Made by a program: the position numbers and the translations under genes
Source: Deltaproteobacteria bacterium
Lineage (GTDB): Bacteria; Myxococcota_A; Polyangia; Polyangiales; Houyiibacteriaceae
Direction of reading: 5' to 3'
Assembly (NCBI GenBank): GCA_034670305.1
Contig: JAXMNT010000003.1
Location: 160,001-224,000 of the forward strand
DNA length: 64,000 nucleotides
Part shown: positions 37,928 to 61,611 of the stretch, in pieces
Position numbering within the stretch: the stretch's first letter is position 1
Layout: each line of letters opens with the position of its first letter
Notes under the pieces: generated by a model
The model's database searches: none
The model's input: the letters and a program-made list of their open reading frames with translations, nothing else
What the model was told of the DNA's origin: nothing

Positions 37928-39603
37928 GATCCGTCCCAGGTGCTCGCAATCAGGTTGGTCTCGTAAGGACCATTTTCGCTGGTGGGCATGTTTCGAAGCA
38001 GGGAGAGCTGCTCTGCGCCGGTCACCGGCGGCCCCGAAAGTCGTGAACGAGACCCAGTTCTGCTCGGCCTGCGCTCGATCTGGGACTGCGGACGCAGCGA
38101 TGCGCCGCGTGGGACTCACGCGGCGTGTTCGCAAACGCGGATGTGGTTACTGGGGTGGGTCGGAAGTCCGGGGTGGTCGGCCGGCAGGTTCGGTCGCGTC
38201 GCCTGACGCGCGTGGTCGACCGCGGCGGGCGTCTCGCATGACGACCACGCGGCGGGCTTCGCTTGGCTGATTCTTGTCGAAGCGATGTCGGACGACCGCT
38301 TCGGGTCGGTCGCTTGTCTCGAGCAGCTCCGCCGGGACCCGCGGGGGCTCCGACACGAACTCCATCGCTTCGGCTCGCACGACAGCCGCGGCCTCGTCCC
38401 TGAACGCGGTGCCGACTTCGGCGAGTACGCGGGCGACTTGTTCGTCGTCGGCTGTGACGGGGTTGAGCCGGAGTTCGGCCTTCACCTCGTCGAGGGTGGG
38501 CTCGGGACCAGTGATGAGCAGGGCCGGATCGGCGGGCTCGACGTCGATCGGGAAGAGCTTCCGCATCTTGTACGTGCCGTACGGAAACGGGATCGGATCG
38601 CCCGCGCGGAGCGCTTTCACGCCAGCGCGGTGGGTGCGCCGAAACGTGGTGACCTCCGTCTTGGCTTGAATGTGCACGCGGCGTCCGTTGATCCCGGAAG
38701 CACCTTGCTTGTAGCTCGGCACGACTTCGCCGCCGGCCGTCCGCCGGGTGCGGGGCTCGCTGTACGGGTGGATGCGCTTGGTGCGTTGCACACCCATCAC
38801 CGGCCACTTGCGGGCCGCGTTCAGAGCTCGGATCGCTTCTCTCTGCAGCCGGCGCATGTAGTAGATCAGCTGGTCGAGATCGCCGTTGAACTTGCGGTAC
38901 AACCGGGCGGGCGGATTGAACCACACGTTGACGTACTCGTCGCGCAGCCTCGGATCGAAGTAGAACTCTGGACGCCGCACGCGGATGGGGATCCCCTTCC
39001 ACAACGAGAAGTCGAACACGAAGCCCGGCATGTCTTCGGGCCGCCTCACGAGACCAGCGGCGACGCATTGCACGGACTCGTAGACGAGGTGGGCGGCCTG
39101 CGCTTCGGCATCGAGCAGCCGCATGTGGTGGGTCGCGCGGTCGTCGAAGATCTGACCCGGCTGGTCGTACCGCTCCCGGCCGAACAGCGTATTGAGCGCG
39201 CAACTCAGCTCGCCATGAAACAGCCGAAGGAACTCCGGGCGCTTCTCCTCGTTGTCGGTGAGGTCGAGGTGGTGGTGGTTGATGACCTTGGTCGCGCAGT
39301 GGAGGGAGACCCCCGTCTGCTGCTGCGCATGCCCCAGCGCGTACAGCCACGCCTGGTCCACACCCGGATGCCAAGGCGCCAGGAACGCCTTCCGAAAGTT
39401 CGTACGACGCGTCAGCGCATAGCTCGCACCGCGTACGACTGGCCGTGCATCAGACACGCTTCGCACAGAGCACACCCCATGCCGTCTCCGTTTCTCGGAC
39501 GTTTCAACGATTTCGGCTGGCGCCCGCCACCCAACCGCCGGCGGCCCGCCACCACCAACGGCTGCGACCCAGGCAACAGACTCTCGAGCACCTGGGACTG
39601 ATC
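37928..39603 (-). mobile_element. HUH (RAYT-like) transposase unit, copy 1, 1676 bp, 19-bp inverted ends
   Basis: Left gatccgtcccaggtgctcg (37928-37946) and right cgagcacctgggactgatc (39585-39603) are 18/19 inverted; same length as copy 2. Confidence 0.85.
38147..39457 (-). CDS. RAYT/TnpA-like HUH tyrosine transposase with long C-terminal extension (436 aa)
   Basis: YALTRRT, INHHHL (HUH), ALN, LVY....VAAGLV..PEDMPG. Confidence 0.85.
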   Translation of the reverse strand: MSDARPVVRGASYALTRRTNFRKAFLAPWHPGVDQAWLYALGHAQQQTGVSLHCATKVINHHHLDLTDNEEKRPEFLRLFHGELSCALNTLFGRERYDQPGQIFDDRATHHMRLLDAEAQAAHLVYESVQCVAAGLVRRPEDMPGFVFDFSLWKGIPIRVRRPEFYFDPRLRDEYVNVWFNPPARLYRKFNGDLDQLIYYMRRLQREAIRALNAARKWPVMGVQRTKRIHPYSEPRTRRTAGGEVVPSYKQGASGINGRRVHIQAKTEVTTFRRTHRAGVKALRAGDPIPFPYGTYKMRKLFPIDVEPADPALLITGPEPTLDEVKAELRLNPVTADDEQVARVLAEVGTAFRDEAAAVVRAEAMEFVSEPPRVPAELLETSDRPEAVVRHRFDKNQPSEARRVVVMRDARRGRPRASGDATEPAGRPPRTSDPPQ

Positions 39604-40741
39604 AGCGCGGTCGCGTGGAGAGGGGTACGCGCTCGGGGTCGACGGCGGCGGGTTTCTGGCCATCGGGTACATCACCAACTTCTCAGACGACGACGGCGGT
39701 TTCGTGCAGCTCGCCAACCCAGGCGGCGCGTTCTTGGGACCGCCGATTCGGGTTGGCGATTCTGTGCCGGGCGTGCTTGGGCTGGTCAGCCCCAGCGGAG
39801 CCGAAGACGGACCGGGCTGGCTCCTCTTTCGATACGACCGGCTGACCACGTTCATCATGATCCGGCACCTGGCGCGCGACGGCACGCTCGGTCCCGAACG
39901 GCGGCTCGGCGACCAAACGACGCGAGAGGTACGGATCTCCATCGACGCGATGGCGGACGGGGGCTTCGTCGCTGCGTGGGAGCAGGCTGTCGGCGGACGC
40001 GACACCGTCCGCGCGCGACGGTTCGATGCGTCGCTTGCCCCCATGGGCCCGTCGCTTCTCGTGCCCACCGTGGAGGACCGCGGTGAGAACTGGCCCGCGG
40101 TGGCAGGCGATGGGGACGACTGGATCGTGGTCTTCGAGAAGGAGATGCGCCGGGAAGTCGTCACGCGGGCAGTCGAGGAGATGCGCATCCGGCGCTACCG
40201 CGGAATCACCCCGCTCGGCCCGCCGACGACCATCGGCGACGCGGTCGAGATCACTCGATGGTTCGTGAGCGGTCTGACGCCCATGAACTCTGCTGCGCCC
40301 GTCGGCGGATTTTCGCTTCGCTTCATGATGGACACGCCCGAGGGCGACTTCGCCCTGCACGAACGCATCGTCACCGCGACCGACATCACGGACCCGACAC
40401 CCATCTACACCGACGCGGGCTACCTCGACATCCAGCTCGTCCCCCGCGCGCCCGCCGATGGCCGCACGATCACCACCGACACCCCGTCGCTCTTCCAGTT
40501 CAGCCTCGCGGCCTACCCCGACGAGTCCGTTCGGTTCGGCGCATACCGAAGCACGGAGCCGCTCCCGATGCGGGAGTCGATGCTGCTCGACGCGGTGTTG
40601 TTCAATGTGCGCCGATCGTTCTCGGTCGGTGAGTCTCCGCGCGGCACGTGGGTCCTTTGGGAGGCCCTACGCTCGCACCCCTCTCCGTCGATCTCGCTCT
40701 TCCTCATGCCGCACGTGACGACGGTGGAGTCCGCAGAATGA
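39604..40741 (+). pseudogene. 5'-truncated beta-rich protein, translationally coupled to the Rhs toxin
   Basis: Open frame runs back to the TGA inside the element's right end; its stop overlaps the toxin ATG (ATGA). Confidence 0.65.
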
Positions 40742-43700
40742 CCGCGAACCAGACATCGGCCGGGCGTCCACACCGGCGCGCCCATTCTCACAGCCACACC
40801 CGTCGTCGCCGCAACCAAGCCGTCGCCGTTCTACTCTCCGTCACGACGTTCCTCAGCGCCGGCGCCCCGCTCGCGGCCAAGGCGCAAGACCACCGCGACA
40901 GCCGCGCGAGCACCCCGTCCTACAACCTGCCGTCGTCCGTCGAGACCCAACGCACCGGCGAAGAGATGCTCCTCGGCGACGACGTCGAAGGCCGCCTCGA
41001 GCACGAGTACATCGACCCGGACGCCACGTCGTTCGGCCCAGGCGGCGAACCCATCCCCCACGAAGGCCTCGATCCCGAAGCCATCGCCCGCATGGAAGAA
41101 GCGGCCGACCTTCCCGATCCCGCCGACCTGCCCGACGGCGCGACCGCCGCCGCACTCCCGACTGGCGAAGCCAAGTCCGCCGTCACCCCCTCGCGCATCT
41201 CCGTCCCGAACGCGGAAGGCTCCATCGAAGGCATGGGCGAGTCGTTCGCGCCCGTGCTCTCGAGCGGCACCGCGACCTTCAGCGTACCCATCGCACTCCC
41301 GGCCGGCCGCGCCGGGGTGCAGCCGAGCCTCGGCCTCTCCTATGCAAGCACGGGCGGCAACTCGTGCGTCGGCATCGGCTGGAACCTCTCCACCCCGATG
41401 ATCCTCCGCCAGTCCGACCGCGGCCTGCCACGCTACAACGACCGCGACCAGTGGCACGTCGAAGAAGACCGCTTCTTCTACAACGGCGGCCAGGAGCTCG
41501 TGCCGGTCGACAACACGGCCGCCTCCATCGTCGACGCGAGCCACGACGGAAGCGGCCCCCGCTACCAGGACACCCACTTCGTCCCAGGCGAGGTCAGCGA
41601 CTGGCAGCAGTACCGCGCGCGCGTCGAGGGCGGCTTCATGCGCTTTTTCCGCAGTCCCGAATCCGACCGCTGGATCGTCCAAGGCAAAGACGGCACCCGC
41701 TTCGATTTCGGCCTCGTCGACACCCATCCCTCGGATCTCGATCCCGAGAACGCGCTCCAAGCCGACCCGGCCGACCCCGCCCGCATCTACGCCTGGCGCC
41801 TCACCCGCATGAGCGATCCGCACGGGTCGACGGTCTACTACCGCTACCTGCAGGACGCGGGCGAGATCTACCCCGAGGACATCTTCTACCTCTCGCCGAA
41901 CAGCTGCGCCGGCGAGCCGGACAGCGCGCGCACCTGCACCGAGCCACTCGCCAACTACGGCGTGCGTGTGCACTTCGACTACGAGACGCGCGCCGACGTC
42001 ACGAGCCGCTACACCGCCGGCCACCGCATCGAGACCGGCCTGCGCCTGAGCCGCCTCGTCGTCACCGCCGCGGACCAAGCCGGCACCGGGCGCTCGCTCG
42101 TACGCCGCTACCACCTCGCCTACGACCCGAGCAGCCACCACTCGTTGCTCGCGTCCGTGCAGGTTGAAGGCCGCCCCGCCGACACTCAGTACGTCGGCAC
42201 CTACTTCGAGCACGACGTCTTCTCGAACGTCTCCGAAGCCGACGCGCTCTCGAGCGGCGCCGTCGGACAGATGCTTCCGGCGATGACCTTCGCGTACACC
42301 GAGCCCCCGTCGCTCGCCTCAGGGATCCCAGGTTTCGGCAGCGTGGACGCCACCGTGCACGCGATCACGAACAGCCCAGACGTCAGCTTCGACGCGGCGC
42401 GCGCGGATCTCTTCGACGTCAACACCGACGGGCTGCCGGATCTCATCGTCACCGACCCGGCCCGGTACCGCACCGCGGGCGGCGAGCCCGCGGTCGGCGT
42501 CTTCTTCAACGGCTTCTCTGGCACCGACGCAAGCCCGGCCGGAGTCGCCGGCACCTTCAGCGCGCCCATCGCCGTGCCGATGCCGAGCCACCTCAGCGGC
42601 ACCCTCAACCTCGGCTCGCAGAACCTGCTCCCGATGGACGTCGACGGCGACGGCAGGAGCGACTTGATGCACCTGCCGCGGCGCGACCGCTACGGCTACT
42701 TCGTCGTCACGCGCGAGAGCGAAGACGTCACCGGTCCGGTCACGAGCCCCGCCGACCAGGGCTGGCGCTTCACCTACGCGCAGGTCGACACCGGCGGCGT
42801 CGATCCCCGCGTCGATCTCGTGCGCGACGGCGCGCGCTACCGCACCTGGGACGTCAACGGCGACCACCTCATCGACATCTCGCGCACCACCGGCACCGTG
42901 ATGCAGACCTGGCTCAACCTCGGCTTCGTGCGGGACCAGGAAACCGGCGAAGGCGCCGAAGGCCGGTTCGGCCGAGCGACGGCCAACGACGACGGCACCT
43001 TCGCCATCGACGCCAGCCCCTACGAGACGTGTCTCCTCCACGACGGCCTGCCCGTCGACTTCTCGGATCCCGAACTCCGCACCGCCGACATGAACGGCGA
43101 CGGTCTCGTAGACATCGTGAAGATCCGCCGCGGCCACGTCGTGTACTGGCCCGGCCGCGGCGTCACCGAGACGGGCGCGCCCGTCTTCGGCGACGGCCCC
43201 CGTCACTGCGCCCGCGGCGAAGGCGACAACCGCGAACGTGTCATGGCGACGCCCCCGGCCGAGCTCAACGTGGATCTCAGCGGCGTGATGCTCGCCGACG
43301 TCAACATGGACGGTGCCACCGACGTGCTCCAGGTGCGTTTCCGGGAGCTCGATGTCTGGTTCAACCAGTCCGGCGAAGGGTTCACCGAACGCGTCACGAT
43401 CGACTCGCCCATGGCCCCAGACTTCGCGCCGCGGATCCGGATGGCGGACATCGACGGCTCCGGCACCACCGACCTCGTCTACGGCTCCTCGTCGCGCTGG
43501 GAGTACCTCGACTTGATGGGCGGCCAGCGCCCACGTCTCTTGCGCGAGGTACACAACGGCCTCGGCGCCGTCACCACCCTCGGCTACGGCTCGAGCGCCG
43601 ACGACTACGTCGCGGACCTGGAGGAAGCGGCCACCTGCTCGGACTGCGAGCCCTTCACGTGGAGCCGCGTTTCCGGCGACTGCGACTCGCGCCTCGAAGA

Positions 43701-46700
43701 ACTCAGCGGCGAGTGTGTCTACCGCAGCGGCGGCAGCCCGGTGGTTTCGACCGTCGTGCGCAGCGTTACCACCACCGACCAGTTCGATCGCCTCGGCCGC
43801 GAAGAGAACATCAGCACGACGCAGTTCGCGTACCACGACGGCTACTACGAAGGCATCGAGCAGGAGTTCCGCGGCTTCGGGACCGCGGACGCCGTTGCAG
43901 TGGGCGACATGAGCCACCCGACCGCTGTCTCGCGCACCTGGTTCCATCAAGGCCGCCGCCCGACTTCCATCGCCACGGACCGCCTCGCCGAGAACCCGTA
44001 CGAGTCGCTCAAAGGCCGCCAGTGGTTCTCGGAGACGTTCGACGAAGAAGGCACCTTCCTCTCGAGCGCCCACGCCACCGTCACCGTGCGCCGCCTGATG
44101 ACCGGACTCGACGGCCGCGACATCGCCTACGCGTACGTCAGCCAGTCCGACGAGCTCCGCTACTCGACGGACTTCGCCAGCGCCCCCGGCACAGATCTCA
44201 GCGTCGACTGGCTCGTCACCGAGCACGTGGACGACACCGGCGCGCTCGTGGCCGACGAGACCTACCCCGGAAGCCTCCCGCTACGGAACAGCAGCTACGC
44301 CCACGTTCGGAGCCGCACGCCAGAGGTCGACAACCTCGGCCAGGTCCTCACACAGGTTTCCGACGGCCGCATCACCGACACCGAGGGCTACACCCCGTCC
44401 GGCGGTTTCGACGAAGCCATCGAAAGCTACGCGGTGCCCGTGCTGGTCAACGGGAGCGCTTGGATCTGGCGCACCGCCGAGACGTGGGTCGACGGGCACG
44501 GCACCAGCGACCGGCTCGGATACGCCGTCAACACGTTCGATCCCGACACCGGCGATCTTTGGCACGCTGCCCAAGAGGCGAAGCTCCCATCTGGCGCAAG
44601 CTACGCATTCGCAGGAGACGCGGATGGGGCAGAAGCGTTCACGCTCGCTGGCGCCTACCCCACGAGCGGCGTGCAGACCCTCGAGGCGTCCACCGCCTAC
44701 GACGCCTGGGGCAACCCGACCGCCTCGTGCGCCGGCGCCGATCTCCACGGCTCGGGCGTCGGTGCCGACGACTGCCTCCGCTACGCAGAGGTCACCTACG
44801 ACGCTGCGTTCGCCCAGCTCCCCGTGACCGAAGCCATCGCCATCCACGAGGACGGCGCCGCGACCTACTGCGACGACACCGCGGAAGGCCTGTGCCTCGT
44901 CGAGACCACGGCGGCGTGGGATCGCGGGCTCGGCGTTCTGCTCTCCGCGACCGATCCCAACGCAGACACCACCACCGTGACGTACGACGGACTCGGTCGG
45001 CTGACCGCTGTCGAGCCACCGGACGCACCGAACGAGGACGCCTCCTGCGCGACCGACCGCCCATCGACCACCTTCCAGTACGAGCTCGTGAGCGAGGGCC
45101 TGCCGGTCAGCCGGGTGACGAGCACGCAGCTCTTCCAGTGCAACGTCCGCTACATGCAGAGCCGGTCCTACGTAGACGGGCTCGGTCGAGCGCGCGCTTC
45201 GCTCGCGTACACCGTCCGCAACACTGGCGGCCAGCGTCACTGGCAACAGTCTGGCATCGGCACCTTCAGCGCGCGCGGCACGCCCGTTCGTGGCTACAAC
45301 AGCCGCTACGTCGCCTCGAACGACCCACACCCCACCGACGCGGTGGGGCTCGACCCAAGCGTGCCGAGCACGCAAGCAACGTACGACGCGTTCGGGCGGG
45401 TCACCGAAGCGCACGAGCGCGATGGCTCGGAGAGCACCATGCAGTACGGCGCGCTCTGCAGCCGCAGCTGCGACCCGCTCGATCTTGGCGACACTGGCTC
45501 GGGCGACTCGGAGGCTCCACACGACGACACTGCGCTGGGCACCTGCGCGTGGGCATATGTGGATGGCCACGGTCGCGGGGTCGACCAAGTACTCCACAAC
45601 GCCATGCCCGATGGCATGTCCGTCGCCGACGAGTACTACCGGCTCTGGACGACCTACCGTGCAGACGGCTCGGTGCTCTCGGTCACCCGCGCGGAGACCG
45701 CGACGCTGTCGGTCGCCGACCGCACCGCCATCACCGGGAGCGACGGCGAGCTGCACTCCCTCACCCGCACGTTCGTGTACGACTCGCTTGGTCGGCGGAT
45801 CTCTGGCACCGACCCGGACAGCGACGGACGGAGCGGTGAGCGCTGGCGCTACCTTTACAGCCGGATCGGTGATCTCGTCGCCGTCCGCGATCCGCGCGAC
45901 TGCGGCGCCAACTTCTACTACGACCGCGCCGGCCGGTTGGTTGGCGAAGACTACGTCGGCTGCAGCGAGGCCCAGCACAGCTTCGAAGAGCCAGACCAGG
46001 ACACGCTCCCAGACAGTGGCGCCATCGCGCTCGAGCCGGTCTCGATGCCGACGCTTCGCCAAGTGGACGCCCGCTACCTCTTCGACGAAGCCCCCGACTT
46101 CGCGACCGGCGACATGGCCCCGCCCTCGGGCAGCAACTACGTCGGCCGCCTCAGTGGCACGAGCGACCGCGGTCAGCGAAGCGTGGTCGACTACGACGAC
46201 CGAGGCAGGCCAACCTGGTCCGCACGCCAGATGGTCCTGCTCCCAGACGCACCGACCATCCCCGCGACGTTGAGCGGTGACGACCCGGTCCTGTACGACG
46301 AGGGCGATCTCACCACGGTCCCGTTCCGCGAGTGGGACGAGGTCAACACGTACATCTCGACCACGCTCTACAACCGCGCCGACATGGTCTCGGACCGGTA
46401 CTACCCGACCGACCCCGATTGGAGCGGCGGTGGCTCGGCGCCCGTCGTACGCGGTGACATGCGCTACACCTTCCGCGGCATGCCGCAGGCCGGAGAGGTG
46501 TACATCGACTCGTTCTCGCAGGAGATCTTCGAGACCCACTACAACGAGCACAACCTCGCGTACCGCGTGTACCACGGGGAACAGACGGGTCTCTCCGGGC
46601 AGGTCATCAAGTACGTCTACTTCGACGAACGTTTGAGGCCCGACAGGCTCCGGCACGTCCGGACGGGCGCTGTACGCGCGGGGACCCTCCCCGAACTCTC

Positions 46701-48846
46701 CGCGTATGCCGAGGTGCTCGACCACCTCTACGGCTGGGACGCGGCCAACAACCTCGTGTCGGTTCACAACTCAGCCCCCAACGACGCCACGACCGAGCTC
46801 GAGATCAGAAAGTACGACATCTACCACGACGCCCTCTACCGGGTGAACATGGTCGAGTACGAGTACGCCGGACCGACGGGAGGCTGGAGCCCCGACGCCC
46901 CCATCTCCGATTGGCGCGACACCCAGGCCACCAACATCGGCGCCGACCCGATGCGGCGCCAGCCCGCGCCGATGCTCCCGCAGATGGCGTCGGACCGTGT
47001 CAAGACGCTCGAGTACCGCCACGACTGGCTCGCGAACCAAGTCAGCTGGATCGACGACACCCTGGGCAGCAACGGAGAAGGCACGTCGTTCTACGAGCGC
47101 AGCATCGGCCAAGAAGGCCAGCTGGTGAACGGCGCTGACGAGGACATCGACGCGCTCCGTCCGGCGGCACTCTACTTCTCCGCCCAGCTCCCAACCGCCG
47201 CGCCGAGCTTCGACGCTGGAATCGACCGAGGCGGCTGGGTCGACCTCGAGTACGGCGAGAGCGGCAACGTCGAAGAGATGACCGTCCGCGCCCAGTGCTA
47301 CGACGCAAGCGCGATGGACGTCTGCTACGACGACACCGCCCTCGCGCTGAGCAGCCGTACAGCCCACGCCATCGCCCACTGTCGCTGCGACCGAGAGCAG
47401 CACTACCAGTACCGCTGGGACGAACTCAACCGCTTGGCCGAAGCCCGCCGCTACGACCGCGAGGGCAGCGGCGTCTGGACCCTAGAGACGAGGCAGCGCT
47501 ACCGCTACGACGCTGGCAACGTACGTACCGTGAAGCTGACATCGTCAGGCGGCATCGACCGAGCCTCGCTGTACGTGTTGCCCGGTGACTTCGAGCGTCG
47601 CGGCGTCGCGGTGGACATCGACGCGATGAACGGCGATGCGTGGAGGGCGGTCGCGGGCGTGAACACCGAGACGCAGTACCTCGTCGCTGGGGCGCGTGTG
47701 GTGTGGAAGAAGGTTCCAGAGATGGATGCGGGCGGCGGAGAGAACTTCGAGACCGACGTCCGGATCACCGTGCCGCTCGCGGACCTATTGCAGTCGACCG
47801 TCGCAAGCATGGACCTTGTTTCAGGTGAGCTGCTTGAGGTCGGCACGTACTATCCGTCGGGCAACCGCGAGATGCTGGTCGCGCGGGACAGCTCGGTGGA
47901 CGGGCAGACGTTCCAGCTCGAGCCGATCGGGTTCACCGGGAAGGAAGGGGACGACGACGTAGGGGTCGTCTACTTCGGGGAGCGGTACCTGCTGCCGCAT
48001 CTCGGGCGGTGGGCGAGTGCGGACCCGTTGCAGGTGCATGCCGGTGGTGGCGGGGAGTTTGGGAACTCTTATCACTATGTGTCGGGGAACCTGCTGCAAG
48101 CTCGGGACCCGTTGGGTTTGCAAGACCCGGCTACGAACGCGGGTCGAGCCGCTGCTCAGGCCGGAGCAGCCGCCAACGCCGTTCACAGACAAGCCGCGCA
48201 GCAAATGGCGGAGCAAACGGCCCGGCGTGGGACTGAGCGCGCGCTCCAGCGGCAGGCTGTACAACGTGCGGCAGCGGCGGGAGGCTCGGGCGCTGGCTGG
48301 GGCGCGGCCCGGTTGTTGGGGGGGTGGCTATCCGTGCTCATCATGGTGTTGACTCCCACCAACACCACCGTCAAGGATGGAAGGACTCCATCCCAGTCCG
48401 AGGCATGCTTCCAGAACGCCGACGCCGGAGCGTGTACGCAACTAGCCAGGGACCGGCCCGAGGCGCGCGAACAGGCTGAAGCCCGTCGCGAGCTTCTGGA
48501 GCGACATGCTGGTGGTCCAGAAGACGACGAACCTGGAGCTACGGATGAGCCGGAGATCGACAGTGTGGACATGGAGGATATGATCGACCACATTATCGAA
48601 CACCACATTGATGACTTCATTGATCCGGATGAGTTGACTCCCGAGCAAATTCGAGAAGAGATCAAAGGCACAATTCTAGACATTCTTCGTGATAACGACG
48701 CTCGGGAAGCGGACCGGGGCCGGACTTGGTGGCGCGACAGCCAGCGAGAAATCGTGATTATTCATGACCCTAGCACTGGTGGGACTGGATTCAGACCAAC
48801 ACACGAAGGCACCGACGACTACAATGAAGACTATACACCAGACTGA
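40738..48846 (+). CDS. secreted SpvB/TcdB-midN/YD-Rhs polymorphic toxin (2702 aa)
   Basis: Signal peptide ending AKA-Q; SGTATFSVPIALPAGRAGVQPSLGLSY...GIGW (SpvB-like); DxNGDG repeats; EFRGFG; YD repeats; YFGERY...GRWASADPL...DPLG; variable C-terminus. Confidence 0.92.
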   Translation: MTANQTSAGRPHRRAHSHSHTRRRRNQAVAVLLSVTTFLSAGAPLAAKAQDHRDSRASTPSYNLPSSVETQRTGEEMLLGDDVEGRLEHEYIDPDATSFGPGGEPIPHEGLDPEAIARMEEAADLPDPADLPDGATAAALPTGEAKSAVTPSRISVPNAEGSIEGMGESFAPVLSSGTATFSVPIALPAGRAGVQPSLGLSYASTGGNSCVGIGWNLSTPMILRQSDRGLPRYNDRDQWHVEEDRFFYNGGQELVPVDNTAASIVDASHDGSGPRYQDTHFVPGEVSDWQQYRARVEGGFMRFFRSPESDRWIVQGKDGTRFDFGLVDTHPSDLDPENALQADPADPARIYAWRLTRMSDPHGSTVYYRYLQDAGEIYPEDIFYLSPNSCAGEPDSARTCTEPLANYGVRVHFDYETRADVTSRYTAGHRIETGLRLSRLVVTAADQAGTGRSLVRRYHLAYDPSSHHSLLASVQVEGRPADTQYVGTYFEHDVFSNVSEADALSSGAVGQMLPAMTFAYTEPPSLASGIPGFGSVDATVHAITNSPDVSFDAARADLFDVNTDGLPDLIVTDPARYRTAGGEPAVGVFFNGFSGTDASPAGVAGTFSAPIAVPMPSHLSGTLNLGSQNLLPMDVDGDGRSDLMHLPRRDRYGYFVVTRESEDVTGPVTSPADQGWRFTYAQVDTGGVDPRVDLVRDGARYRTWDVNGDHLIDISRTTGTVMQTWLNLGFVRDQETGEGAEGRFGRATANDDGTFAIDASPYETCLLHDGLPVDFSDPELRTADMNGDGLVDIVKIRRGHVVYWPGRGVTETGAPVFGDGPRHCARGEGDNRERVMATPPAELNVDLSGVMLADVNMDGATDVLQVRFRELDVWFNQSGEGFTERVTIDSPMAPDFAPRIRMADIDGSGTTDLVYGSSSRWEYLDLMGGQRPRLLREVHNGLGAVTTLGYGSSADDYVADLEEAATCSDCEPFTWSRVSGDCDSRLEELSGECVYRSGGSPVVSTVVRSVTTTDQFDRLGREENISTTQFAYHDGYYEGIEQEFRGFGTADAVAVGDMSHPTAVSRTWFHQGRRPTSIATDRLAENPYESLKGRQWFSETFDEEGTFLSSAHATVTVRRLMTGLDGRDIAYAYVSQSDELRYSTDFASAPGTDLSVDWLVTEHVDDTGALVADETYPGSLPLRNSSYAHVRSRTPEVDNLGQVLTQVSDGRITDTEGYTPSGGFDEAIESYAVPVLVNGSAWIWRTAETWVDGHGTSDRLGYAVNTFDPDTGDLWHAAQEAKLPSGASYAFAGDADGAEAFTLAGAYPTSGVQTLEASTAYDAWGNPTASCAGADLHGSGVGADDCLRYAEVTYDAAFAQLPVTEAIAIHEDGAATYCDDTAEGLCLVETTAAWDRGLGVLLSATDPNADTTTVTYDGLGRLTAVEPPDAPNEDASCATDRPSTTFQYELVSEGLPVSRVTSTQLFQCNVRYMQSRSYVDGLGRARASLAYTVRNTGGQRHWQQSGIGTFSARGTPVRGYNSRYVASNDPHPTDAVGLDPSVPSTQATYDAFGRVTEAHERDGSESTMQYGALCSRSCDPLDLGDTGSGDSEAPHDDTALGTCAWAYVDGHGRGVDQVLHNAMPDGMSVADEYYRLWTTYRADGSVLSVTRAETATLSVADRTAITGSDGELHSLTRTFVYDSLGRRISGTDPDSDGRSGERWRYLYSRIGDLVAVRDPRDCGANFYYDRAGRLVGEDYVGCSEAQHSFEEPDQDTLPDSGAIALEPVSMPTLRQVDARYLFDEAPDFATGDMAPPSGSNYVGRLSGTSDRGQRSVVDYDDRGRPTWSARQMVLLPDAPTIPATLSGDDPVLYDEGDLTTVPFREWDEVNTYISTTLYNRADMVSDRYYPTDPDWSGGGSAPVVRGDMRYTFRGMPQAGEVYIDSFSQEIFETHYNEHNLAYRVYHGEQTGLSGQVIKYVYFDERLRPDRLRHVRTGAVRAGTLPELSAYAEVLDHLYGWDAANNLVSVHNSAPNDATTELEIRKYDIYHDALYRVNMVEYEYAGPTGGWSPDAPISDWRDTQATNIGADPMRRQPAPMLPQMASDRVKTLEYRHDWLANQVSWIDDTLGSNGEGTSFYERSIGQEGQLVNGADEDIDALRPAALYFSAQLPTAAPSFDAGIDRGGWVDLEYGESGNVEEMTVRAQCYDASAMDVCYDDTALALSSRTAHAIAHCRCDREQHYQYRWDELNRLAEARRYDREGSGVWTLETRQRYRYDAGNVRTVKLTSSGGIDRASLYVLPGDFERRGVAVDIDAMNGDAWRAVAGVNTETQYLVAGARVVWKKVPEMDAGGGENFETDVRITVPLADLLQSTVASMDLVSGELLEVGTYYPSGNREMLVARDSSVDGQTFQLEPIGFTGKEGDDDVGVVYFGERYLLPHLGRWASADPLQVHAGGGGEFGNSYHYVSGNLLQARDPLGLQDPATNAGRAAAQAGAAANAVHRQAAQQMAEQTARRGTERALQRQAVQRAAAAGGSGAGWGAARLLGGWLSVLIMVLTPTNTTVKDGRTPSQSEACFQNADAGACTQLARDRPEAREQAEARRELLERHAGGPEDDEPGATDEPEIDSVDMEDMIDHIIEHHIDDFIDPDELTPEQIREEIKGTILDILRDNDAREADRGRTWWRDSQREIVIIHDPSTGGTGFRPTHEGTDDYNEDYTPD

Positions 48847-49375: not shown

Positions 49376-49494
49376 CTAGAGATCCTCACCCGCAACCCCG
49401 GCGGTTACACCCGTCCTGGATCACGATCGAGTGGGGTATGACTGGTCACCTCTCGCAAGATCTCAAGGAGCGTATCGTCCGCCGCAGCCGCGCT
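49376..49494 (+). mobile_element. IS630-family 5' remnant
   Basis: Begins at a TA (cTAga); ATG 49438 encodes MTGHLSQDLKERIV, like the IS630 SxDLRERV N-terminus; cut by an element-end motif. Confidence 0.5.
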
Positions 49495-50844: not shown

Positions 50845-50849
50845 ACGCA

Positions 50850-52525: not shown

Positions 52526-52588
52526 AGCGCGACTAGATAAGGCAACAGACTTTCGAGCACCTGGGACTGATCAGCGCGACTCGCGCGG

Positions 52589-54217
52589 CACTGCCGCTGC
52601 GACCGAGAGCAGCACTACCAGTACCGCTGGGACGAGCTGAACCGGTTGGCAGAGGCCCGCCGCTACGATCGCGAGGGGACCGGCGTCTGGACCCTAGAGA
52701 CGAGGCAGCGCTACCGGTACGACGCTGGTAACGTACGTACCGTGAAGCTGACATCGTCAGGCGGCATCGACCGTGCCTCGCTGTATGTGTTGCCTGGTGA
52801 CTTCGAGCGTCGCGGCGTCGCGGTGGACATCGACGCGATGAACGGCGATGCGTGGAGGGCGGTCGCGGGCGTGAACACCGAGACGCAGTACCTCGTCGCT
52901 GGGGCCCGCGTGGTCTGGAAGAAGTCTCCAGAGATGGACGCCGGCGGCGGAGAGAACTTCGAGACCGACGTCCGGATCACCGTGCCTCTCGCGGACCTAT
53001 TGCAATCGACCGTTGCAAGCATGGACCTGGTGTCTGGCGAGCTGCTTGAGGTGGGTACGTACTACCCGTCGGGCAACCGCGAGATGTTGGTCGCGCGCGA
53101 CAGCTCGGTGGATGGGCAGACGTTCCAGCTGGAGCCGATCGGGTTCACCGGGAAGGAAGGCGACGACGATGTTGGGTTGGTCTACTTCGGGGAGCGGTAT
53201 TTGATGCCGCATCTTGGGCGGTGGGCCAGTGCGGATCCGCTGCAGGTGCATGCCGGGGGTGGTGGGGAGTTTGGGAACTCTTACCACTATGTAAGTGGGA
53301 ACCTGTTGCAGGCGCGGGACCCGTTGGGGCTGAGCGGCCCGGTCAAGAAGAACCCGGGTGTACAACTGGAGGCATCCACTGACTACACTGAGCGAGTGCA
53401 CTCGCAGACCGAACAGTTCCAGGTTGGTGAGTGGGAGGCGTTCCAGCGGCAGGCACGGGAACACGTTGGCTGGACAGCCATGCGCGAGCGCGCCGCAGCA
53501 CTAGTAGAAGGGAGCGCGACACTCCACGAGGCATGGTCGGCTGCCCGTGAGGCTGGCGGGGATCACGCGGAGGTATCGATTCGATATGTATGGGAGCGTC
53601 GGGCCGAAGGCGCACCAGAAACCATCGCCAGAATAGAGTTCGCTCTGATTGACGCCGCCCCAGCCCCCCCCCCTCCTCCCCCTCCCCCCGACGATGACCC
53701 CGTTAGTTATGTCGAAGAACGCGATCCGTCCGTGACGATCGAGGCACCTCGCGCTATCGATGTTCCGTACGGTGTGACACTTGGCCTCGGGGGTTTCGCA
53801 ATGATCGCTGGAGATCGGGAGCGACGGGTTCACGTCGGAGTCTATCTACAAATTGGGTTCGATGGCACCGCAAAAGTAAGCGATTTCGGTGCCTATGTGG
53901 GCGCTCAGGTCGCGATGACAAACAACCGAGGGATCGAATTTGGAGCCCAGATAGATGCGTCCTTGCAACCGGTCATAGGTGCGTTGTCCGGCGCAGAGTA
54001 CACGTTGGAGGCTGGTAACTCTGGATGGGGAGAGCGGAACATCGCCATGCAAGGAGCCCTGAGCGAAGACGGGATGGAATCACCGGATTCTCTTACGATC
54101 GGCCAGACGCACCATGCGAGCTTCAATCTGGCTCCAGTAACGATTGAAACCCACGGCGGGGTTGGGCAAGAGGCCTATCTATCTCTGCCAGCACTGGTAG
54201 AGTCATTGCTCGAGTAG
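52589..54217 (+). pseudogene. orphan Rhs module: distal core plus a different C-terminal toxin tip
   Basis: 52589-53332 is homologous to 47377-48120 (HCRCDREQHYQY...DPLGL); unrelated after DPLGL; no N-terminal region. Confidence 0.9.
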
Positions 54218-54935: not shown

Positions 54936-54944
54936 CGCAGAGCA

Positions 54945-55596
54945 GGTCCGTCCCAGGTGCTCGCACTCAGGTTGGTCTCAGAAGGACCAGTTCGGCTGGC
55001 GGGGGTGTTCTGAAGCAGGGCGAGCTGCGCTGCACGGTCACCGGCGGTCCAAAAATTGGGTGAACGAGACCCAGTTCTGCTCGGCCTGCGCTCGATCTGG
55101 GACTGCGGACGCAACGATGCGCCGCGCGGGACTCACGCAGCGTGTTCGCAAACGCGGATGTGGCTACTGGGGTGGGTCGGAAGTCCGAGGTGGTCGCTCG
55201 GCAAGTTCGGCCGCGTCGCCTGACGCTCGTGGTCGACCGCGGCGGGCGTCTCGCATGACGACGACGCGGCGGGCCTCGCTGGGCTGATTCTTGTCGAAGC
55301 TTCCTCTTGGGGGCACGGCCCCCAAACCCCGTCCGGTGACACCGCTGGCTCGCTTCGCGAGGCTGCGCGCTGTCGAGTGCTCGACCTGCGCTTCGGGTCG
55401 GTCGCTCGTCTCGAGCAACTCGGCCGGGACGCGCGGGGGCTCCGATACGAACTCCATCGCTTCGCCTCGGACGACAGCCGCGGCCTCGTCCTTGAACGCG
55501 GTGCCGACTTCGGCGAGCACGCGCGCGACTTGTTCGTCGTCGGCGATGACGGGGTAGCCGGAGCTCGGCCTTCACCTCGTCGAGGGTGGGCTCGGG
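54945..55596 (-). pseudogene. 3' fragment of the HUH transposase unit with end motif and trailer
   Basis: ggtccgtcccaggtgctcg end; encodes VLAEVGTAFKDEAAAVVR...RPPRTSDPPQ; small deletion plus an insert at ~55300-55388. Confidence 0.85.
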
Positions 55597-55599
55597 AGC

Positions 55600-56472
55600 T
55601 CAGGCAGCCGCGGAAGCGGTTGTTGCGACCTCGTCGCCGTGGAGCCAGTCCGCGGCTTTCTGGGCGGCAGACGCGGTCCTGAGTAGGACTCGTGGGTCGG
55701 CGCGAAGGACTCGAACCCAGTGGTCGAGGTAGGCCACATGCTGCAGCTCGCCTGGGAGTCCGAACTCCGCACAGAGGAACGCGGCGCCCATCTCGGCGAT
55801 GAGTTCCTCCCGCGCATACACATCGTCTCCGAAGCGTCCCTGCTTCCGGTCGAGTCGGCTGGGGTGCGCGGTCGCGTGCACCAGCTCATGCATCAGCGTG
55901 GCGTAGTAGTTGCCGTGGTCCGAGAAGGACGTTCGATCTGGCAGCTGGATCGCGTCTTCCGTGGGGGTGTAGTGCGCTTGGTCCCCTCCGTGCCGGATGT
56001 CGATCCCGGTCGCTTCCACCCACTTGTCGACGCGCTCATCGGTGACGACATCGGCATCTTCTTTGTGAACATCTGGGAGTCCATCGCACTGCTCCAAGTT
56101 GAACACGGCAGCGCTTCCCGATACCCAACGCGGGCGGGCGCCGGGCTCCTCATCCGGCGCTGGGTCCCTCGGGCGCCAGAACACGACGCGGGTCGCGCGC
56201 TCTCCCTTTCGGACGTGGCCGCCAAGTGCGATGGCTTGCCGGTAGGTACACCACCAGCGTTCTTGGAACCCACGACTTCGCATTGCGGACCAGAGGATCA
56301 GGATGTTGATGCCCCGATAGACGCGGTTCGTCGTGAGGTTGGCGGGTCTTCCGCCATCGGTTGACCAGGGGGCAATCCAGGGAGGAACGCCACCCTCCTC
56401 AAGATCTCGAACCAGCTCCATCGCTACGGTCTCGTGCAGCGCGGCGCGCGCTGCATTCTTCTTCTTTCGCAT
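55600..56472 (-). CDS. ardC: ArdC-family antirestriction / ssDNA-binding protein
   Basis: PPWIAPW, YRGINILIL, TYRQA..LGGHVRKGE, VFNLEQ, HELVHAT, YAREELIAEMGAAFLC; GGAGG RBS. Confidence 0.9.
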   Translation of the reverse strand: MRKKKNAARAALHETVAMELVRDLEEGGVPPWIAPWSTDGGRPANLTTNRVYRGINILILWSAMRSRGFQERWWCTYRQAIALGGHVRKGERATRVVFWRPRDPAPDEEPGARPRWVSGSAAVFNLEQCDGLPDVHKEDADVVTDERVDKWVEATGIDIRHGGDQAHYTPTEDAIQLPDRTSFSDHGNYYATLMHELVHATAHPSRLDRKQGRFGDDVYAREELIAEMGAAFLCAEFGLPGELQHVAYLDHWVRVLRADPRVLLRTASAAQKAADWLHGDEVATTASAAA

Positions 56473-56574
56473 CGTGGTCCTCCTGGGAGAACCAACCACT
56501 CGGGCTCTTCCCGACTACTTAGAAGGGGTCCCCGAATCTGAGTTTGCAAGATTGGATCGACGCTTGGACGGATC

Positions 56575-56830
56575 CCGCCCCCAGCGCTGTCGGCTCCTCA
56601 CGTCTGCGATGTAGACCGTGGTGGATCGGGAGGCGGCCTGGTCGGTCGCCCGCGTGGTCGAGGGCTGTGGCTGTCGAAGCGATGTTGGACAAGCGGCTCG
56701 GGTCGGTCGCTTGTCTCAAAGCAACTCGGCGGGTACGCGCTGGGGCTCCGACACGAACTCGAGCGCTTCGGCTCGCACGACAGCCGCGGACTCTTCCTTG
56801 AACGCTGTGGCGACTTCGGAGAGGACGCGC
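56575..56830 (-). pseudogene. degenerate internal fragment of the HUH transposase C-terminal region
   Basis: gtcgaagcgatgttggac...ggctccgacacgaactc...cggctcgcacgacagccgcgg aligns with 38276-38432. Confidence 0.75.
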
Positions 56831-57586: not shown

Positions 57587-57735
57587 CCTCGAGCCGAAAC
57601 CGAAAGACCCGCGGAGGATCAGGGACATCGAAGTTCTCAACCCAGACAGGTGGTTGACGTTTTTGACGTTGGTCGACGTTCGGCCACACCGCCAGAGTCG
57701 TTGTCAGATCCGCCAGGCTTGGTCGTCTTGGGAAT

Positions 57736-59583
57736 ATGACAACGAGCCACGAACAAGCGGGTGCGCGGGCCGGAGAGAGTTCCTCCCTCGCCGACCTCCG
57801 TCCCGTTTGCGACGCGAGCTTTGTGCAGAAGCTGCGCGCGATTCGCGACACCCTCACGGAAGGCCTGGTGGAACGCGAGGTGGCGGTGCGGCTGAGTCTT
57901 CTCGCTGCGCTGGCCGGTGAGCACTTGTTGATGCTCGGTCCGCCGGGAACGGCCAAGAGTCTGATCGCCCGTCGCCTTCATCTCGCCTTCAGCGAGTCCA
58001 CGTACTTCGAGAGACTGCTGACCCGGTTCACGGTTCCTGAGGAACTCTTCGGGCCGCTGTCGATCAAGGGCCTCGAAGAGGACCGCTATGAACGACTGAC
58101 CGACGCTTACCTGCCCAAGGCCTCGATCGCCTTTCTCGATGAGATATTCAAGGCGAACAGCGCCATCCTCAACTCCCTGCTGACCCTCCTCAACGAACGG
58201 GAGTTCGACAACGGCGTCTCGCGCGACGAGACACCACTCGTCGCTGTCATCGGTGCGAGCAACGAACTTCCGGAAGGGGAGGAACTCGACGCGCTCTTCG
58301 ATCGGTTCTTGCTGCGGCTCCATGTAGGTCCTGTGACCAAGGACGCTTTCCCGACACTTCTGGCTCTCCGCGATCGGGCTGTGCCCGAGGTCGCGCACGA
58401 GCTGAAGCTCGATGCCCAGGAACTGCTGGCGGTGCAGAACGCGGCGGCCGCGGTAGAGGTCCCCCCGGATGTCACTGCGCTGCTGTGCGACCTACGAGAT
58501 TGGTGCACGGCCGAGGACGTTCAGGTCTCGGACCGCCGGTGGCGCAAGGTCGTCAAGTTGCTCCAGGTCTCGGCTGCGACGCATGGACGTACTCAGGTCT
58601 CCATCTGGGACTGTTGGCTGCTCCAGCACTGTGTTTGGAACACGCCGGAGGCACGGGAGAAGGTCTTTGAGTGGTATGCCGCGCGCGTGGGAGCGTCGGC
58701 GGTCATGAACCCTGAACGTCTCACGAGAATCGTGGTCTCGTTTGAGGCCCGGCTGAAGGCGAACCGTGAGAGTCGGTCGCAGACCCGTGACGACCAGGGA
58801 CGGCTCGTGTTCAAGGATGCGCACGGTAAACGCACTTTCGAAGTGACGGGCCCGGCACAGAAGCGGCGCGGAGAGGATGTCTTGTTTCTCGCGCCGGCCA
58901 ACGGCCTGCTCGGCTGCGATAGACTTCATGACCGGACGAACGGCGGCGCGGGCTACACGCGGGACGAGCTGAACAACATTCAGGTCGGTGGGAGTCACTA
59001 TGATCGGCAACGCTTCGGCAGATGGTCGGGCAGGGACGCGTACTTGGCCGACCCGAACAACTGGCTCATGGAGGACGTCGCGTTCGCGCCGGTCTTGGAG
59101 CCGACCCGATTCAGCGGGTTCTACGTCGAAGGAGTCCGCGGCGAACTCGGGAAGCTGAAGGAAGAGGTCGGCGGGTACCTCGAAGGGCTCCTGCAGCACC
59201 TCGATTCGTTGAAGGCCGACATCTGCGATCACCTCTGGGTCTTGCCTGAGTTCGCGGAGCTCGCAGCACAGAATCTGGAGCAGACCCGAAGGGACGTCGA
59301 CGCCCTGCTGATGCGGGTGGATGAGCTGCACGCGGGTTTCGAGGCCCTACCACGCGAAGTGGCCGTGCGCTCCGTCCGGGGGACTCGCTCCTGGCACGCT
59401 TTTGAACGTGGTCTGAGGGTGTCGTTGGGTCGCTCGCGTCCTTGCTCGGCTCGTCGCTCAGTCCGCTCGGGCCAGCGAAGCGGGTCCCGAACCTCTGTTT
59501 CGCTGGTTCTGCGTTCTTGCGTCTTGCTTCGGACGCAGGTGTGCGCGGCTCGGGCTGTTGCCGGGCCGCGCTTTGGCTCTTGA
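57736..59583 (+). CDS. RavA/MoxR-family AAA+ ATPase; 3' end replaced by element sequence from ~59366
   Basis: GPPGTAKS, TRFTVPEELFGPLSI, FLDEIFKANSAILNSLL, ASNELP, SDRRW. Confidence 0.88.
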   Translation: MTTSHEQAGARAGESSSLADLRPVCDASFVQKLRAIRDTLTEGLVEREVAVRLSLLAALAGEHLLMLGPPGTAKSLIARRLHLAFSESTYFERLLTRFTVPEELFGPLSIKGLEEDRYERLTDAYLPKASIAFLDEIFKANSAILNSLLTLLNEREFDNGVSRDETPLVAVIGASNELPEGEELDALFDRFLLRLHVGPVTKDAFPTLLALRDRAVPEVAHELKLDAQELLAVQNAAAAVEVPPDVTALLCDLRDWCTAEDVQVSDRRWRKVVKLLQVSAATHGRTQVSIWDCWLLQHCVWNTPEAREKVFEWYAARVGASAVMNPERLTRIVVSFEARLKANRESRSQTRDDQGRLVFKDAHGKRTFEVTGPAQKRRGEDVLFLAPANGLLGCDRLHDRTNGGAGYTRDELNNIQVGGSHYDRQRFGRWSGRDAYLADPNNWLMEDVAFAPVLEPTRFSGFYVEGVRGELGKLKEEVGGYLEGLLQHLDSLKADICDHLWVLPEFAELAAQNLEQTRRDVDALLMRVDELHAGFEALPREVAVRSVRGTRSWHAFERGLRVSLGRSRPCSARRSVRSGQRSGSRTSVSLVLRSCVLLRTQVCAARAVAGPRFGS

Positions 59584-59783
59584 AGCCCGCTGAGGTAGTT
59601 CAGTCGGGGTCTTTGTCGGCTCGAGGAGTTCCGCCTGGTCTGAGGAGGTCTCGGCGGACGGTGACTCGGTCGGTGTCGCTCAGGCCGGGACGGCTTCCGT
59701 AGCGGTCGCGGACGGGGTGGGGCGCCATCGGAGGTTGGATGCTCGGTCGCTTGGTGGCGCTCTTCTGCTCGTTCCGGTCCGTG
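59367..59783. repeat. direct repeat A: 3' end and trailer of the diverged HUH transposase
   Basis: Highly similar to 61265-61611. Confidence 0.88.
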
Positions 59784-61189
59784 GTGGCCGTGGGTGGTTC
59801 GTCGCCAAGGGGTCGTGAGCTCGACTCCTTCGCGCTTCGTTCGCGAAGCTTCTCGTACATGGTGCCGTAGAAGTCGGACATGTCGTCCGCCGACTCTTCT
59901 CGTTCGGCGAGTCGTTCATCATCACCGACGGCGCACCCAGCCACGACGACCACTTGCTTCGGCACCTCGCACTCCACGAACCGAGCGGCCCAGCCTGCAT
60001 CGAAGACACCCGGCGCCAGGAAGTACGCCTCCCCACCCGGCGGCTCCGCTTCGTTGCGCCGCTCGCGCACCGCCTTGTACGTGCCGTACGGATAGACGAT
60101 GTCGGGCTGCTCCCTCGGTGACTCGGCGTCGGGTTCGTCACCTTGAGAGTCGTCCGGCGGCCGTTCTACTGCGCGAGCAGTGGTGTCCGGTGCCGGCTCT
60201 TGCTCCTGAGCGCCGCAGTCCGGTTCCCGCGCTTCGGCGAGCTCTCGTTCCCGCGCCTTGGCGAGTCTCCGCTTCCGTGCCTGCTTCACTCGCCGCCGCG
60301 CGATCTGCGCGTTCTCTTCCAGCCGCACCTTTTCGTGCACTGCGCAGAACTGGTCGACCTCGGCCGTCACGAGCTCCCGCAGCCGCTTGCGCTCCCCGAC
60401 GTCACCCGCGCCAATCATGACGAGCGGCTTGTTCGGACTCCACCGCTCCACGAGCGTGTTCGGCTCGTCCCACGGATGCATCTTCTGATCGCCCAGCACC
60501 GGAAACGGTCGCATCGCAGCCAGCGCACGCTCCTGTGTGCGCGCATCGCTCCGCAGGTCCGCGACCATGCGTTTCGTGTCGCCGCCGTACGCGATGTACG
60601 CCGCCGGCGTCGGCCCGAACACGAGAATGACCTCCGCCGGAAACGACGGGTCGAAGAACACGTCCGGCCGCTTCACCCGCAACCGGTACCCACCGATCCA
60701 CTCGAGCGGCGTACACACCCCGTCGTAGTCCGCCGCCTTCTCACACAGCCCAGCCGCGACGGGGTTCAAGTACTGGTAGAGCACCTGCTTCAACTCCGCC
60801 GACCAATCCATCGTCCGCATGAACGAGATCTGCCGACCGTCGAAGACCTGACCAAGCCGCTGATAGCCACGCTTGGCCAGCAGCACGTTGATCGCCTTTG
60901 CGGTCCACGAATGCGCCCTGCAGAAGATCCTCGGCGCCCTCCCTCTCACATCGGTGAAGAACACATGCGGATGCGTGCCCATCAAACAGATCTGATGGAA
61001 CACCGCCTCTGAATCCCGGTCTCCCATGCCATCGTCCGCACCGAGCGCCGCCACCCCAAGCGCGTACAGATAGATCTGCGAAACCTGAGGGTCCCAGTTG
61101 CCGAGCGCGAACTTCCGCAAGTTCGTCCGCCGCGTCATCGCCAGCGTCTCCCCATGCACCCTCGCCCGCGGCCTCACGAACACCCTCAT
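59600..61189 (-). CDS. diverged RAYT-like HUH tyrosine transposase (529 aa)
   Basis: AMTRRTNLRK, MGTHPH (HUH), YQYLNPVAAGL, KMHPWDEP, YPYGTYK shared with copies 1 and 2. Confidence 0.85.
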   Translation of the reverse strand: MRVFVRPRARVHGETLAMTRRTNLRKFALGNWDPQVSQIYLYALGVAALGADDGMGDRDSEAVFHQICLMGTHPHVFFTDVRGRAPRIFCRAHSWTAKAINVLLAKRGYQRLGQVFDGRQISFMRTMDWSAELKQVLYQYLNPVAAGLCEKAADYDGVCTPLEWIGGYRLRVKRPDVFFDPSFPAEVILVFGPTPAAYIAYGGDTKRMVADLRSDARTQERALAAMRPFPVLGDQKMHPWDEPNTLVERWSPNKPLVMIGAGDVGERKRLRELVTAEVDQFCAVHEKVRLEENAQIARRRVKQARKRRLAKARERELAEAREPDCGAQEQEPAPDTTARAVERPPDDSQGDEPDAESPREQPDIVYPYGTYKAVRERRNEAEPPGGEAYFLAPGVFDAGWAARFVECEVPKQVVVVAGCAVGDDERLAEREESADDMSDFYGTMYEKLRERSAKESSSRPLGDEPPTATTDRNEQKSATKRPSIQPPMAPHPVRDRYGSRPGLSDTDRVTVRRDLLRPGGTPRADKDPD

Positions 61190-61264
61190 CGGCACTGCCC
61201 ACCGGCGGTTGCCATTGGCGGACTCGACGGACCCCATGGACGGGCTCCAACCGGAGCGCTTCGC

Positions 61265-61611
61265 GCGCTCGGTCCGGGGGACTCGCTCCTGGCACGCTAT
61301 TGAACGTGACCTGACGGGTGTCGTTGGCTGGCGCGCGCCCTTGCTCGGCTCGTCGCTCAGTCCGCTCGGGCCCGGGAATCGACTCCCGAACCTCTGTTTC
61401 GCTGGTTCTGCGTTCTTGCGTCTTCCTTCGGACGCAGGTGTGCGCGGCTCGGGCTGTTGCCGGGCCGCGCTTTGGCTCTTGAAGCCCGCTGAGGTGGTTC
61501 AGTCGGGGTCTTCGTCGGCTCGAGGAGTTCCGCCTGGTCTGAGGAGGTCTCGGCGCGGAGGTTGGATCCTCGGTCGCTTGGTGGCGCTCTTCTGCTCGTT
61601 GCGGTCCGTGG
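61265..61611. repeat. direct repeat B (repeat A with an internal ~70-bp deletion)
   Basis: Aligns with 59367-59783. Confidence 0.88.

Follow-up and report, generated by a model that had tools for sequence, protein, structure and literature searches.

The window analysed here is a 64,000-nt stretch of DNA from a Polyangiales bacterium (G000:C3:160001-224000; genome of 7.93 Mb, 105 contigs, 68% GC). It holds a repeated unit of ~1.69 kb that is probably an insertion sequence (IS)-like element of the Y1 HUH (IS200/RAYT) superfamily. Y1 HUH transposases serve as the model both of 'peel and paste' transposition with single strands and of the domesticated processing of repetitive extragenic palindromes (REPs); RAYT stands for REP-associated tyrosine transposase. 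The element would be of the TIRYT/TIRtron type, which is known, if little studied, and in which one gene lies between short inverted end motifs. Two full copies are present in the window, unit A (37925-39609, minus strand, 1685 bp) and unit B (50847-52531, minus strand), and each encodes a 436-aa protein.

Comparison of unit A with the window by BLASTN aligned the two units over 1686 columns with 97.7% identity. The initial annotation had placed them at 37928-39603 and 50850-52525; both units are real, and those borders correspond to the repeat cores of the slightly longer units. The near-identical 436-aa open reading frames (ORFs) that it described were also recovered, on the minus strand and from internal start codons, at 38147-39457 in unit A and 51069-52379 in unit B, and the two proteins are 99.3% identical. 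The start codon is GTG in unit A and ATG in unit B, and the longer ORF of unit A (P0001) begins at 39475. The minus-strand frame of unit A is coding, judged by the GC content at the three codon positions (GC1/2/3 0.71/0.47/0.81), the translation, the family alignment and the fold. In each unit a number of ORFs overlap one another, and the 438-aa ORFs of the plus strand (GC1/2/3 0.80/0.48/0.71) were rejected as mirror ORFs, their GC3 being 0.71 against 0.81 on the minus strand. A third full copy, 96% identical, was found on contig C6 (C6:108821-110615), and the A-type similarity breaks off sharply at the repeats in the full copies. The C6 copy carries 75- and 30-nt in-frame insertions in the variable C-terminal region, and its frame stays open. 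Counted genome-wide, as the initial annotation had proposed, full copies amount to three A units (96-98% identical) and three units of a diverged paralog, D (in the window and on contigs C34 and C44), plus fragments.

As the genome is a draft of 105 contigs, one element might have been written twice by the assembly, an artefact that the initial annotation itself had raised. The check came out against it: units A and B differ at 39 positions, their flanks are unlike each other, and the third copy is on another contig. Moreover, in the Logan contigs of four sequencing runs of one study, which hold 87-89% of the sampled words and possibly represent the source sample, so that they are not independent, bridging was seen at both junctions of copy A. 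The left junction was covered without difference by a 134-nt contig in three of the four runs (X2-X4) and the right one by a 7595-nt contig in all four, and the variant letters of the other copies turned up at the expected places. The summed contig depth inside the unit was 2-5x that of the flanks, a sign of repeated sequence and not a copy number. We regard a duplication made by the assembly as extremely improbable.

The 436-aa protein is supported as a RAYT-like Y1 HUH enzyme by its predicted structure and by its motifs, in agreement with the initial annotation. The AlphaFold2 (AF2) model has a mean predicted local distance difference test (pLDDT) score of 84.5. With VIA-align, the best match of its N-terminal ~150 aa is E. 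coli TnpA-REP (YafM, PDB 4ER8; Z 12.5, root-mean-square deviation 3.0, 156/165 residues aligned), the IS608 chains being next (Z 8.7), and Foldseek retrieved ISDra2/IS608 TnpA at E ~2e-4 (~105 columns) and 4ER8 over 147 columns. All 35 aligned family members have H67 and Y132, and H69 is kept in at least 90% of them; the middle residue of the HxH motif is H, Y, E, N or P and not hydrophobic. Tyr132 stands within Y-x3-[NQ]-x-V-A-A-G-L, a motif of the class-2 (RAYT) type. The NCBIfam profile NF047646 (REP-associated tyrosine transposase, REP_Tyr_transpos) matches residues 11-149 with an E of 7e-4, far under its cut-off; 18 of the 35 members match at E<=0.1 (best 1.2e-10), all under the 80-bit cut-off. 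None of the frames of unit A matched Pfam, and the A and D proteins had no match in PHROGs.

Beyond this core, ~290 residues form a conserved extension without fold match, with further invariant residues (HPWxEPRT, FPxGT) and a basic tail ending in SDPP. Residues 150-380, modelled alone (pLDDT 79), were compared with 48,161 chains and matched none convincingly (best Z 4.4), and residues 150-442 retrieved from the ESM Atlas only unnamed Myxococcota clusters at 0.84-0.87, under the 0.9 level. A helix-turn-helix (HTH)-type C-terminus (Bac_DnaA_C, HTH_23 or HTH_28) was not detected by Pfam, and one of the 35 members matched HTH_20 (E 0.073). In the model, the protein consists of three parts. An N-terminal TnpA-REP-like catalytic core has a His67-x-His69 metal site and, in a helix, Tyr132 as nucleophile; around this core is wrapped an extension of ~220 aa that is mostly helical and specific to the family; and a basic, disordered tail follows.

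The units are bounded by GATCCGTCCCAGGTGCTCG and, inverted, GATCAGTCCCAGGTGCTCG. The 18/19 inverted repeat described in the initial annotation was confirmed and extends to 20 of 22 positions, and allowing up to two mismatches the window has 10 occurrences of the end pattern, where 100 shuffles gave none. In unit A, the gene-downstream repeat lies at 37925-37946 (+) and the gene-upstream one, which continues inward with CGAGAGTCTGTTGCC, at 39585-39606 (-); the corresponding repeats of unit B are at 50846-50868 (+) and 52507-52529 (-). The motif, 19-22 nt long, has the core GA[TA]C-N-GTCC-N-[AG][GT]GT. Past the shared 19 bp the two ends diverge, the upstream one continuing with CGAAAGTC in three genera and the downstream one with CGCAC. 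The downstream repeat of unit A is followed by a small stem, TGGTC-N7-GACCA (37956-37972), kept in four copies with four different loops. Single-stranded DNA folds of the 90-nt ends gave only small stems of -10 to -19.5 kcal/mol, values without shuffle control. When searched with up to one mismatch, the 14-mer core of the motif has ~18 true copies in the 7.9 Mb, almost every one next to a family gene, and the remaining matches are without the flanking GATC context. Unlike a REP, the motif is neither dispersed in high copy through the genome nor self-complementary. As also stated in the initial annotation, no target duplication was found at the three full copies, whose inspected flanks have no direct repeat in common. 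A GC-rich palindromic tract (GGCGGGCCGCC / GGCGGCCGCC) is present between the upstream repeat and the start codon (39520-39560 in the window) and is conserved across genera (loci L016, L020 and L021); its role may be that of an operator or of a subterminal structure.

Whole and partial end motifs adjoin the units, always oriented inward. At 49494-49665 (+), four solo or partial downstream-end motifs stand with 'stuttered' partial copies, the solo motifs spanning 49500-49664. The upstream end of unit B has a tandem second copy at 52539-52581 (-), with 47-bp spacing, which takes in three flank bases and contains a solo end motif at 52554-52572. Three end motifs are piled at C6:108267-108379, and arrays beside the genes in loci L009, L010 and L016 hold 6, 11 and 15 end motifs, respectively, with irregular spacing of 29-104 bp. 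Because the array units take in a few bases outside the repeat, the arrays could have been made either by the enzyme or by replication slippage. The partial duplicates hint at a nick site after GATCC, which is speculative, and other breakpoints also occur.

Related units were found in other genomes. Of the 121 Polyangiales genomes sampled, 54 gave a match at E<=1e-10 (39 of 92 when restricted to high quality), with a maximum of 15 matches in a single genome, matches per genome not being copy numbers. A scan with the single protein gave four loci, in Polyangiales, Myxococcota and Polyangia metagenome-assembled genomes (MAGs). Units of 1.5-1.9 kb are 72-97% identical within each of the genomes G012, G019, G053 and G039, and each lineage has its own end motif, GATCGGTCCCAGGTG in G012, GATCCGTCCGAGGTAC in G053 and G039, and GGAACCGTCCG[AT][TG]GTGCG in G019. 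Among the 14 loci fetched, 13 have the end motif on one side, and in 7 of these 13 an inverted copy is present on the opposite side (up to 5/19 mismatches, reached by at most 1% of 200 shuffles).

The genes next to the units in G012, G019 and G053 encode ISL3, rve and DDE_3 transposases, an integrase and TPR proteins, and no partner gene is conserved. These neighbours bear on the possibility that the protein is an HUH nuclease with another role, be it in defence or in starting the replication or transfer of an integrated element, with the inverted motifs as its origin or operator sites. The ArdC-like and MoxR genes near the units in the window would fit such a role, as would the conserved palindrome (GGCGGGCCGCC-like) ahead of the start codon and the long C-terminal extension without known fold. 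However, the same single-gene unit recurs elsewhere in unrelated contexts, beside the transposase and integrase genes just listed, and the nearest relatives of the protein by fold are Y1 transposases rather than relaxases or Rep proteins. We therefore hold a role of this kind to be very unlikely. Given the non-Rhs neighbours in these three genomes, a conserved link to Rhs toxin loci was rejected as well.

The family is large. A search among 5.8 billion proteins found 128 clusters, mostly unnamed, or 'hypothetical' in Myxococcota/Sandaracinaceae MAGs, and many homologs are on contigs of 1.4-2 kb. A HMMER scan of 1.84 billion representatives gave 3266 clusters at E<=1e-3, 1632 at <=1e-10 and 504 at <=1e-30, the clusters being defined at 50% identity and the count of 3266 including a large branch of ~300-aa proteins (P0215-P0264). 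This branch shares the first two-thirds of the protein, profile positions 1-310 including FPxGT, and the last ~125 positions are missing. Of 12 such relatives, 7 match the Pfam family Y1_Tnp at E<=0.01, 2 of them above the cut-off, and the branch thus ties the long family to the recognised superfamily. The ~300-aa branch is widespread in the same order, where its six-frame matches often contain one in-frame stop. Regarding selection, the differences between units A and B number 14/1311 in the coding part, 7/152 in the 5' non-coding end and 16/221 in the 3' non-coding end. Synonymous and non-synonymous codon changes are in ratios of 10:3 between A and B, 36:18 between A and the C6 copy, and 45:17 between B and the C6 copy. 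The changes being mostly synonymous, the family genes have been under purifying selection since copying.

Taken as an IS-like element, the unit would work as follows. The enzyme would recognise the end motif of 19-22 nt, nick the DNA there through a 5'-phosphotyrosine link, and rejoin the strands without target duplication; the 1.7-kb unit would be moved or copied in this way, and local arrays of whole or partial end motifs would be left as by-products. Catalysis and actual transposition are what we infer here, as is the choice between a single- and a double-stranded substrate. The initial annotation had suggested that the element is self-mobile, a claim that finds indirect backing in the three full copies with sharp ends, in the multi-copy state in other genera and in the purifying selection. 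It was not borne out directly, as neither an empty site, nor a circle junction, nor a target duplication was found.

These and several other results weigh against an IS-like element. A DNA search for an empty site in 31 related genomes, none of the same genus, returned only element-internal and Rhs matches. The contigs of the four runs, which drop rare forms, contained no excision or circle joints; a single joint was listed, from 39446 to 39572 with 33 different letters in between, and it was dismissed as a variant copy. No target motif is defined for the unit, next to the missing target duplication. For the D paralog, an inverted repeat was tried and rejected, since alignment scores of 20-22 are not significant when shuffles average 17.2 and reach 28, and its downstream end has a related motif (CCGTCC...CTCGC). 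At the protein level, none of the 35 members matched Pfam Y1_Tnp (PF01797) at E<=1, and a scan of the organism's own genome with this family also missed these genes. PDB sequence searches with the protein found no TnpA chain, nor did those with the 35-sequence profile, of which the latter count here. Alignment by hhalign with a canonical 232-aa Y1 family of the same genome gave 1.75% probability, and the HxH, FxDR..H and Y-x3-N motifs, which are in register, are not counted as support. In other genomes, 3 of the 13 loci (G053) are marginal, with 6 mismatches reached by 8.5-14% of shuffles, and 3 of 13 (the G019 subfamily) have no upstream inverted motif. Slippage instead of the enzyme is a possible source of the arrays. 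Finally, the copies lie close together (within 24 kb here, 16 kb in G019 and 12 kb in G053), and local duplication could therefore account for some of the spread.

Part of this evidence would also fit a domesticated or non-autonomous, REPtron/TIRtron-like system, in which the Y1 protein would act only on the short end motifs, amplifying or processing arrays, and the gene copies would arise by ordinary duplication or recombination in an island rich in mobile DNA. The local clustering of copies and the lack of target duplication and empty site are in line with it, as are the solo end-motif arrays, a conserved local feature, and the fact that RAYTs are the closest structural relatives. Against it, the motif is not dispersed, its ~18 exact or near-exact copies being located nearly all beside family copies, and sharp ends at the unit borders are seen in the copies on C3 and C6 as well as in the D copies, of which there are three on as many contigs. 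The patchy, multi-copy distribution over 54 of 121 genomes and the many homologs on repeat-length contigs also argue against domestication, which we consider unlikely.

We compared the IS-like element with known systems. The TnpA-Y1 proteins fall into 12 subclasses, with IS behaviour confined to the IS200-type subclass 1.1 (Quentin et al. 2018, PMC6006769). TIRYTs mostly correspond to subclass 2.1, with a median of 238 aa and an HTH C-terminus, and the longest subclass is 2.3, with a median of 325 aa (Quentin et al. 2018, PMC6006769). TIRYTs and TIRtrons were defined by a RAYT-like gene between inverted repeats, many of which share GGGGWSAS, the repeats also occurring solo, as dimers or in clusters (Di Nocera et al. 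2013, PMC3733652). The initial annotation had proposed a distinct end architecture; the general architecture, a RAYT-like gene flanked by inverted repeats together with repeat clusters, is already published and is not new in kind (PMC3733652). Units A and B and the C6 copy resemble TIRYTs/TIRtrons in their RAYT-like Y1 HUH gene with terminal inverted repeats instead of REP hairpins, in the solo, dimeric or clustered repeats (49494-49665, 52539-52581, L009/L010/L016), and in the class-2-like Y motif (Y-x3-N). They differ in protein length, 436-545 aa across the family against the TIRYT median of 238 aa and medians of 238-325 aa in the groups described in these papers, and in the C-terminus, where no HTH or DnaA-C-like domain was detected and a ~290-aa extension without fold match stands instead. 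The repeat core also differs, GATCNGTCCNAGGT here against GGGGWSAS, and the whole unit is present in several near-identical copies.

Other members of the superfamily are less alike. With the RAYT/TnpA-REP system (E. coli YafM), which gave the best structural match to the core, the protein shares its HUH and Tyr motifs, and the gene is likewise bracketed by inverted copies of a presumed recognition sequence. However, the end motif here is not a palindromic hairpin dispersed in high copy, and the protein is ~3x longer. RAYTs are mostly single-copy (Bertels et al. 2017, PMC5581495). They are typically inherited vertically, whereas the present gene is multi-copy and patchy (3 + 3 full copies; up to 15 matches elsewhere). 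With IS200/IS605 elements (IS608, ISDra2), the unit has in common the Y1 HUH fold, the lack of target duplication and a multi-copy IS behaviour, and the A subgroup even has Y-x3-Q. IS200/IS605 elements, in contrast, have asymmetric subterminal hairpins and no inverted repeats, a TnpA of ~130-150 aa and often a tnpB, while the unit has a 20/22 inverted repeat, a 436-aa protein and no tnpB. Subclass 2.3 is similar in being long (median 325 aa) and multi-copy (mean 3.9), without REPs and with a subclass-specific C-terminal domain. It differs, in a comparison made by description only, in its occurrence in Chromatiales and Alteromonadales, in a 55-aa insertion inside the core, and in its motifs NHYH and YVDLNP (PMC6006769). 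Full-text searches of the literature returned no description of the long family or of Y1 elements in Myxococcota. What is new, as far as these searches reach, is the long, Pfam-invisible protein with its extension, its own repeat sequence, the IS-like multiplicity and the end arrays.

The window holds further pieces of the family. Unit D (59364-61245, minus strand), whose gene at 59600-61189 encodes 529 aa from an internal ATG, has a protein ~32% identical to that of A, and the D copies on C34 and C44 show 77-93% protein identity; the diverged 529-aa paralog and the at least four fragments listed by the initial annotation are present. Directly upstream of unit D is the partial 3' end of a further D-type unit (61262-61611, minus strand), a direct repeat with 59364-59784, and a 56-bp fragment of D-type C-terminal coding sequence (37863-37918, minus strand) adjoins unit A, a similar one adjoining the C6 copy. 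A-type fragments were located by BLASTN at 49523-49586, at 54941-55597 (minus strand; downstream end and C-terminal coding part, 90-93% identical) and at 56672-56829 (minus strand; short, 86% identical). An inverted one at 50443-50844 (plus strand), seen by BLASTN and repeat search, comprises the upstream end and the first ~116 codons with 85% identity. Overlapping it, a 241-aa ORF at 49909-50634 (-) has a weak AAA_22 or transposition-ATPase-like match (phrog_296 6.8e-5; AAA_22 1.8e-4) and may be what is left of a different transposon.

Interspersed with the units is a gene for a 2732-aa Rhs/TcdB-like polymorphic toxin (SpvB, TcdB_toxin_midN, RHS repeat) at 40648-48846 (+), and an orphan Rhs tip (Rhs_assc_core) follows downstream at 52646-54217 (+). 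The tip and the main gene have a 95% repeat in common (47377-47676 vs 52589-52888) that starts 8 bp from the duplicated end of unit B, which places the element at a cassette junction. Between the element fragments lie an ArdC-like antirestriction/zincin gene (55600-56499, -) and a MoxR AAA+ gene of the MoxR-vWA-beta-propeller type (57736-59583, +), both of which hint at an integrated mobile island. Mobile-DNA-rich islands are the context common to units across genomes. Elsewhere in the window, a 12-nt-period repeat array (63492-63830) of 19 overlapping copies, 60-84% identical, is contained in an ORF with a GGCTTCGGCATCG-like unit, which probably encodes a low-complexity repeat protein. The canonical Y1_Tnp family of this genome (PF01797, 36-40 bits) has 11 matches on 11 contigs (C20:45721-46002, C31:83470-83760, C38:23649-23939 and 8 more; loci L028-L037), with ORFs of 230-245 aa, NH[VI]H and Y-x3-N motifs, and 69-92% identity to the first sequence among 7 aligned. 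It is probably another multi-copy element of the TIRYT type.

We can also put forward a tentative and rather doubtful extension of the IS-like reading, in which the long Y1 proteins would be a separate IS family whose HUH/Tyr enzyme, aided by the ~290-aa extension, would process the two inverted ends as a duplex, as a panhandle or with each end on the opposite strand from the other, unlike the 'peel and paste' of IS200/IS605. The stuttered arrays would be the footprint of this process, and the same machinery may have seeded REP-like repeats in Myxococcota. The family is large and clearly multi-copy, with a defined end motif of 19-22 nt; it is Pfam-invisible and annotated as 'hypothetical'. It is also relevant to annotation, as the units break assemblies and are located at points of rearrangement, among them the Rhs toxin cassette array of this window. 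The family is a testable case of how a Y1 HUH enzyme could serve an element with inverted ends.

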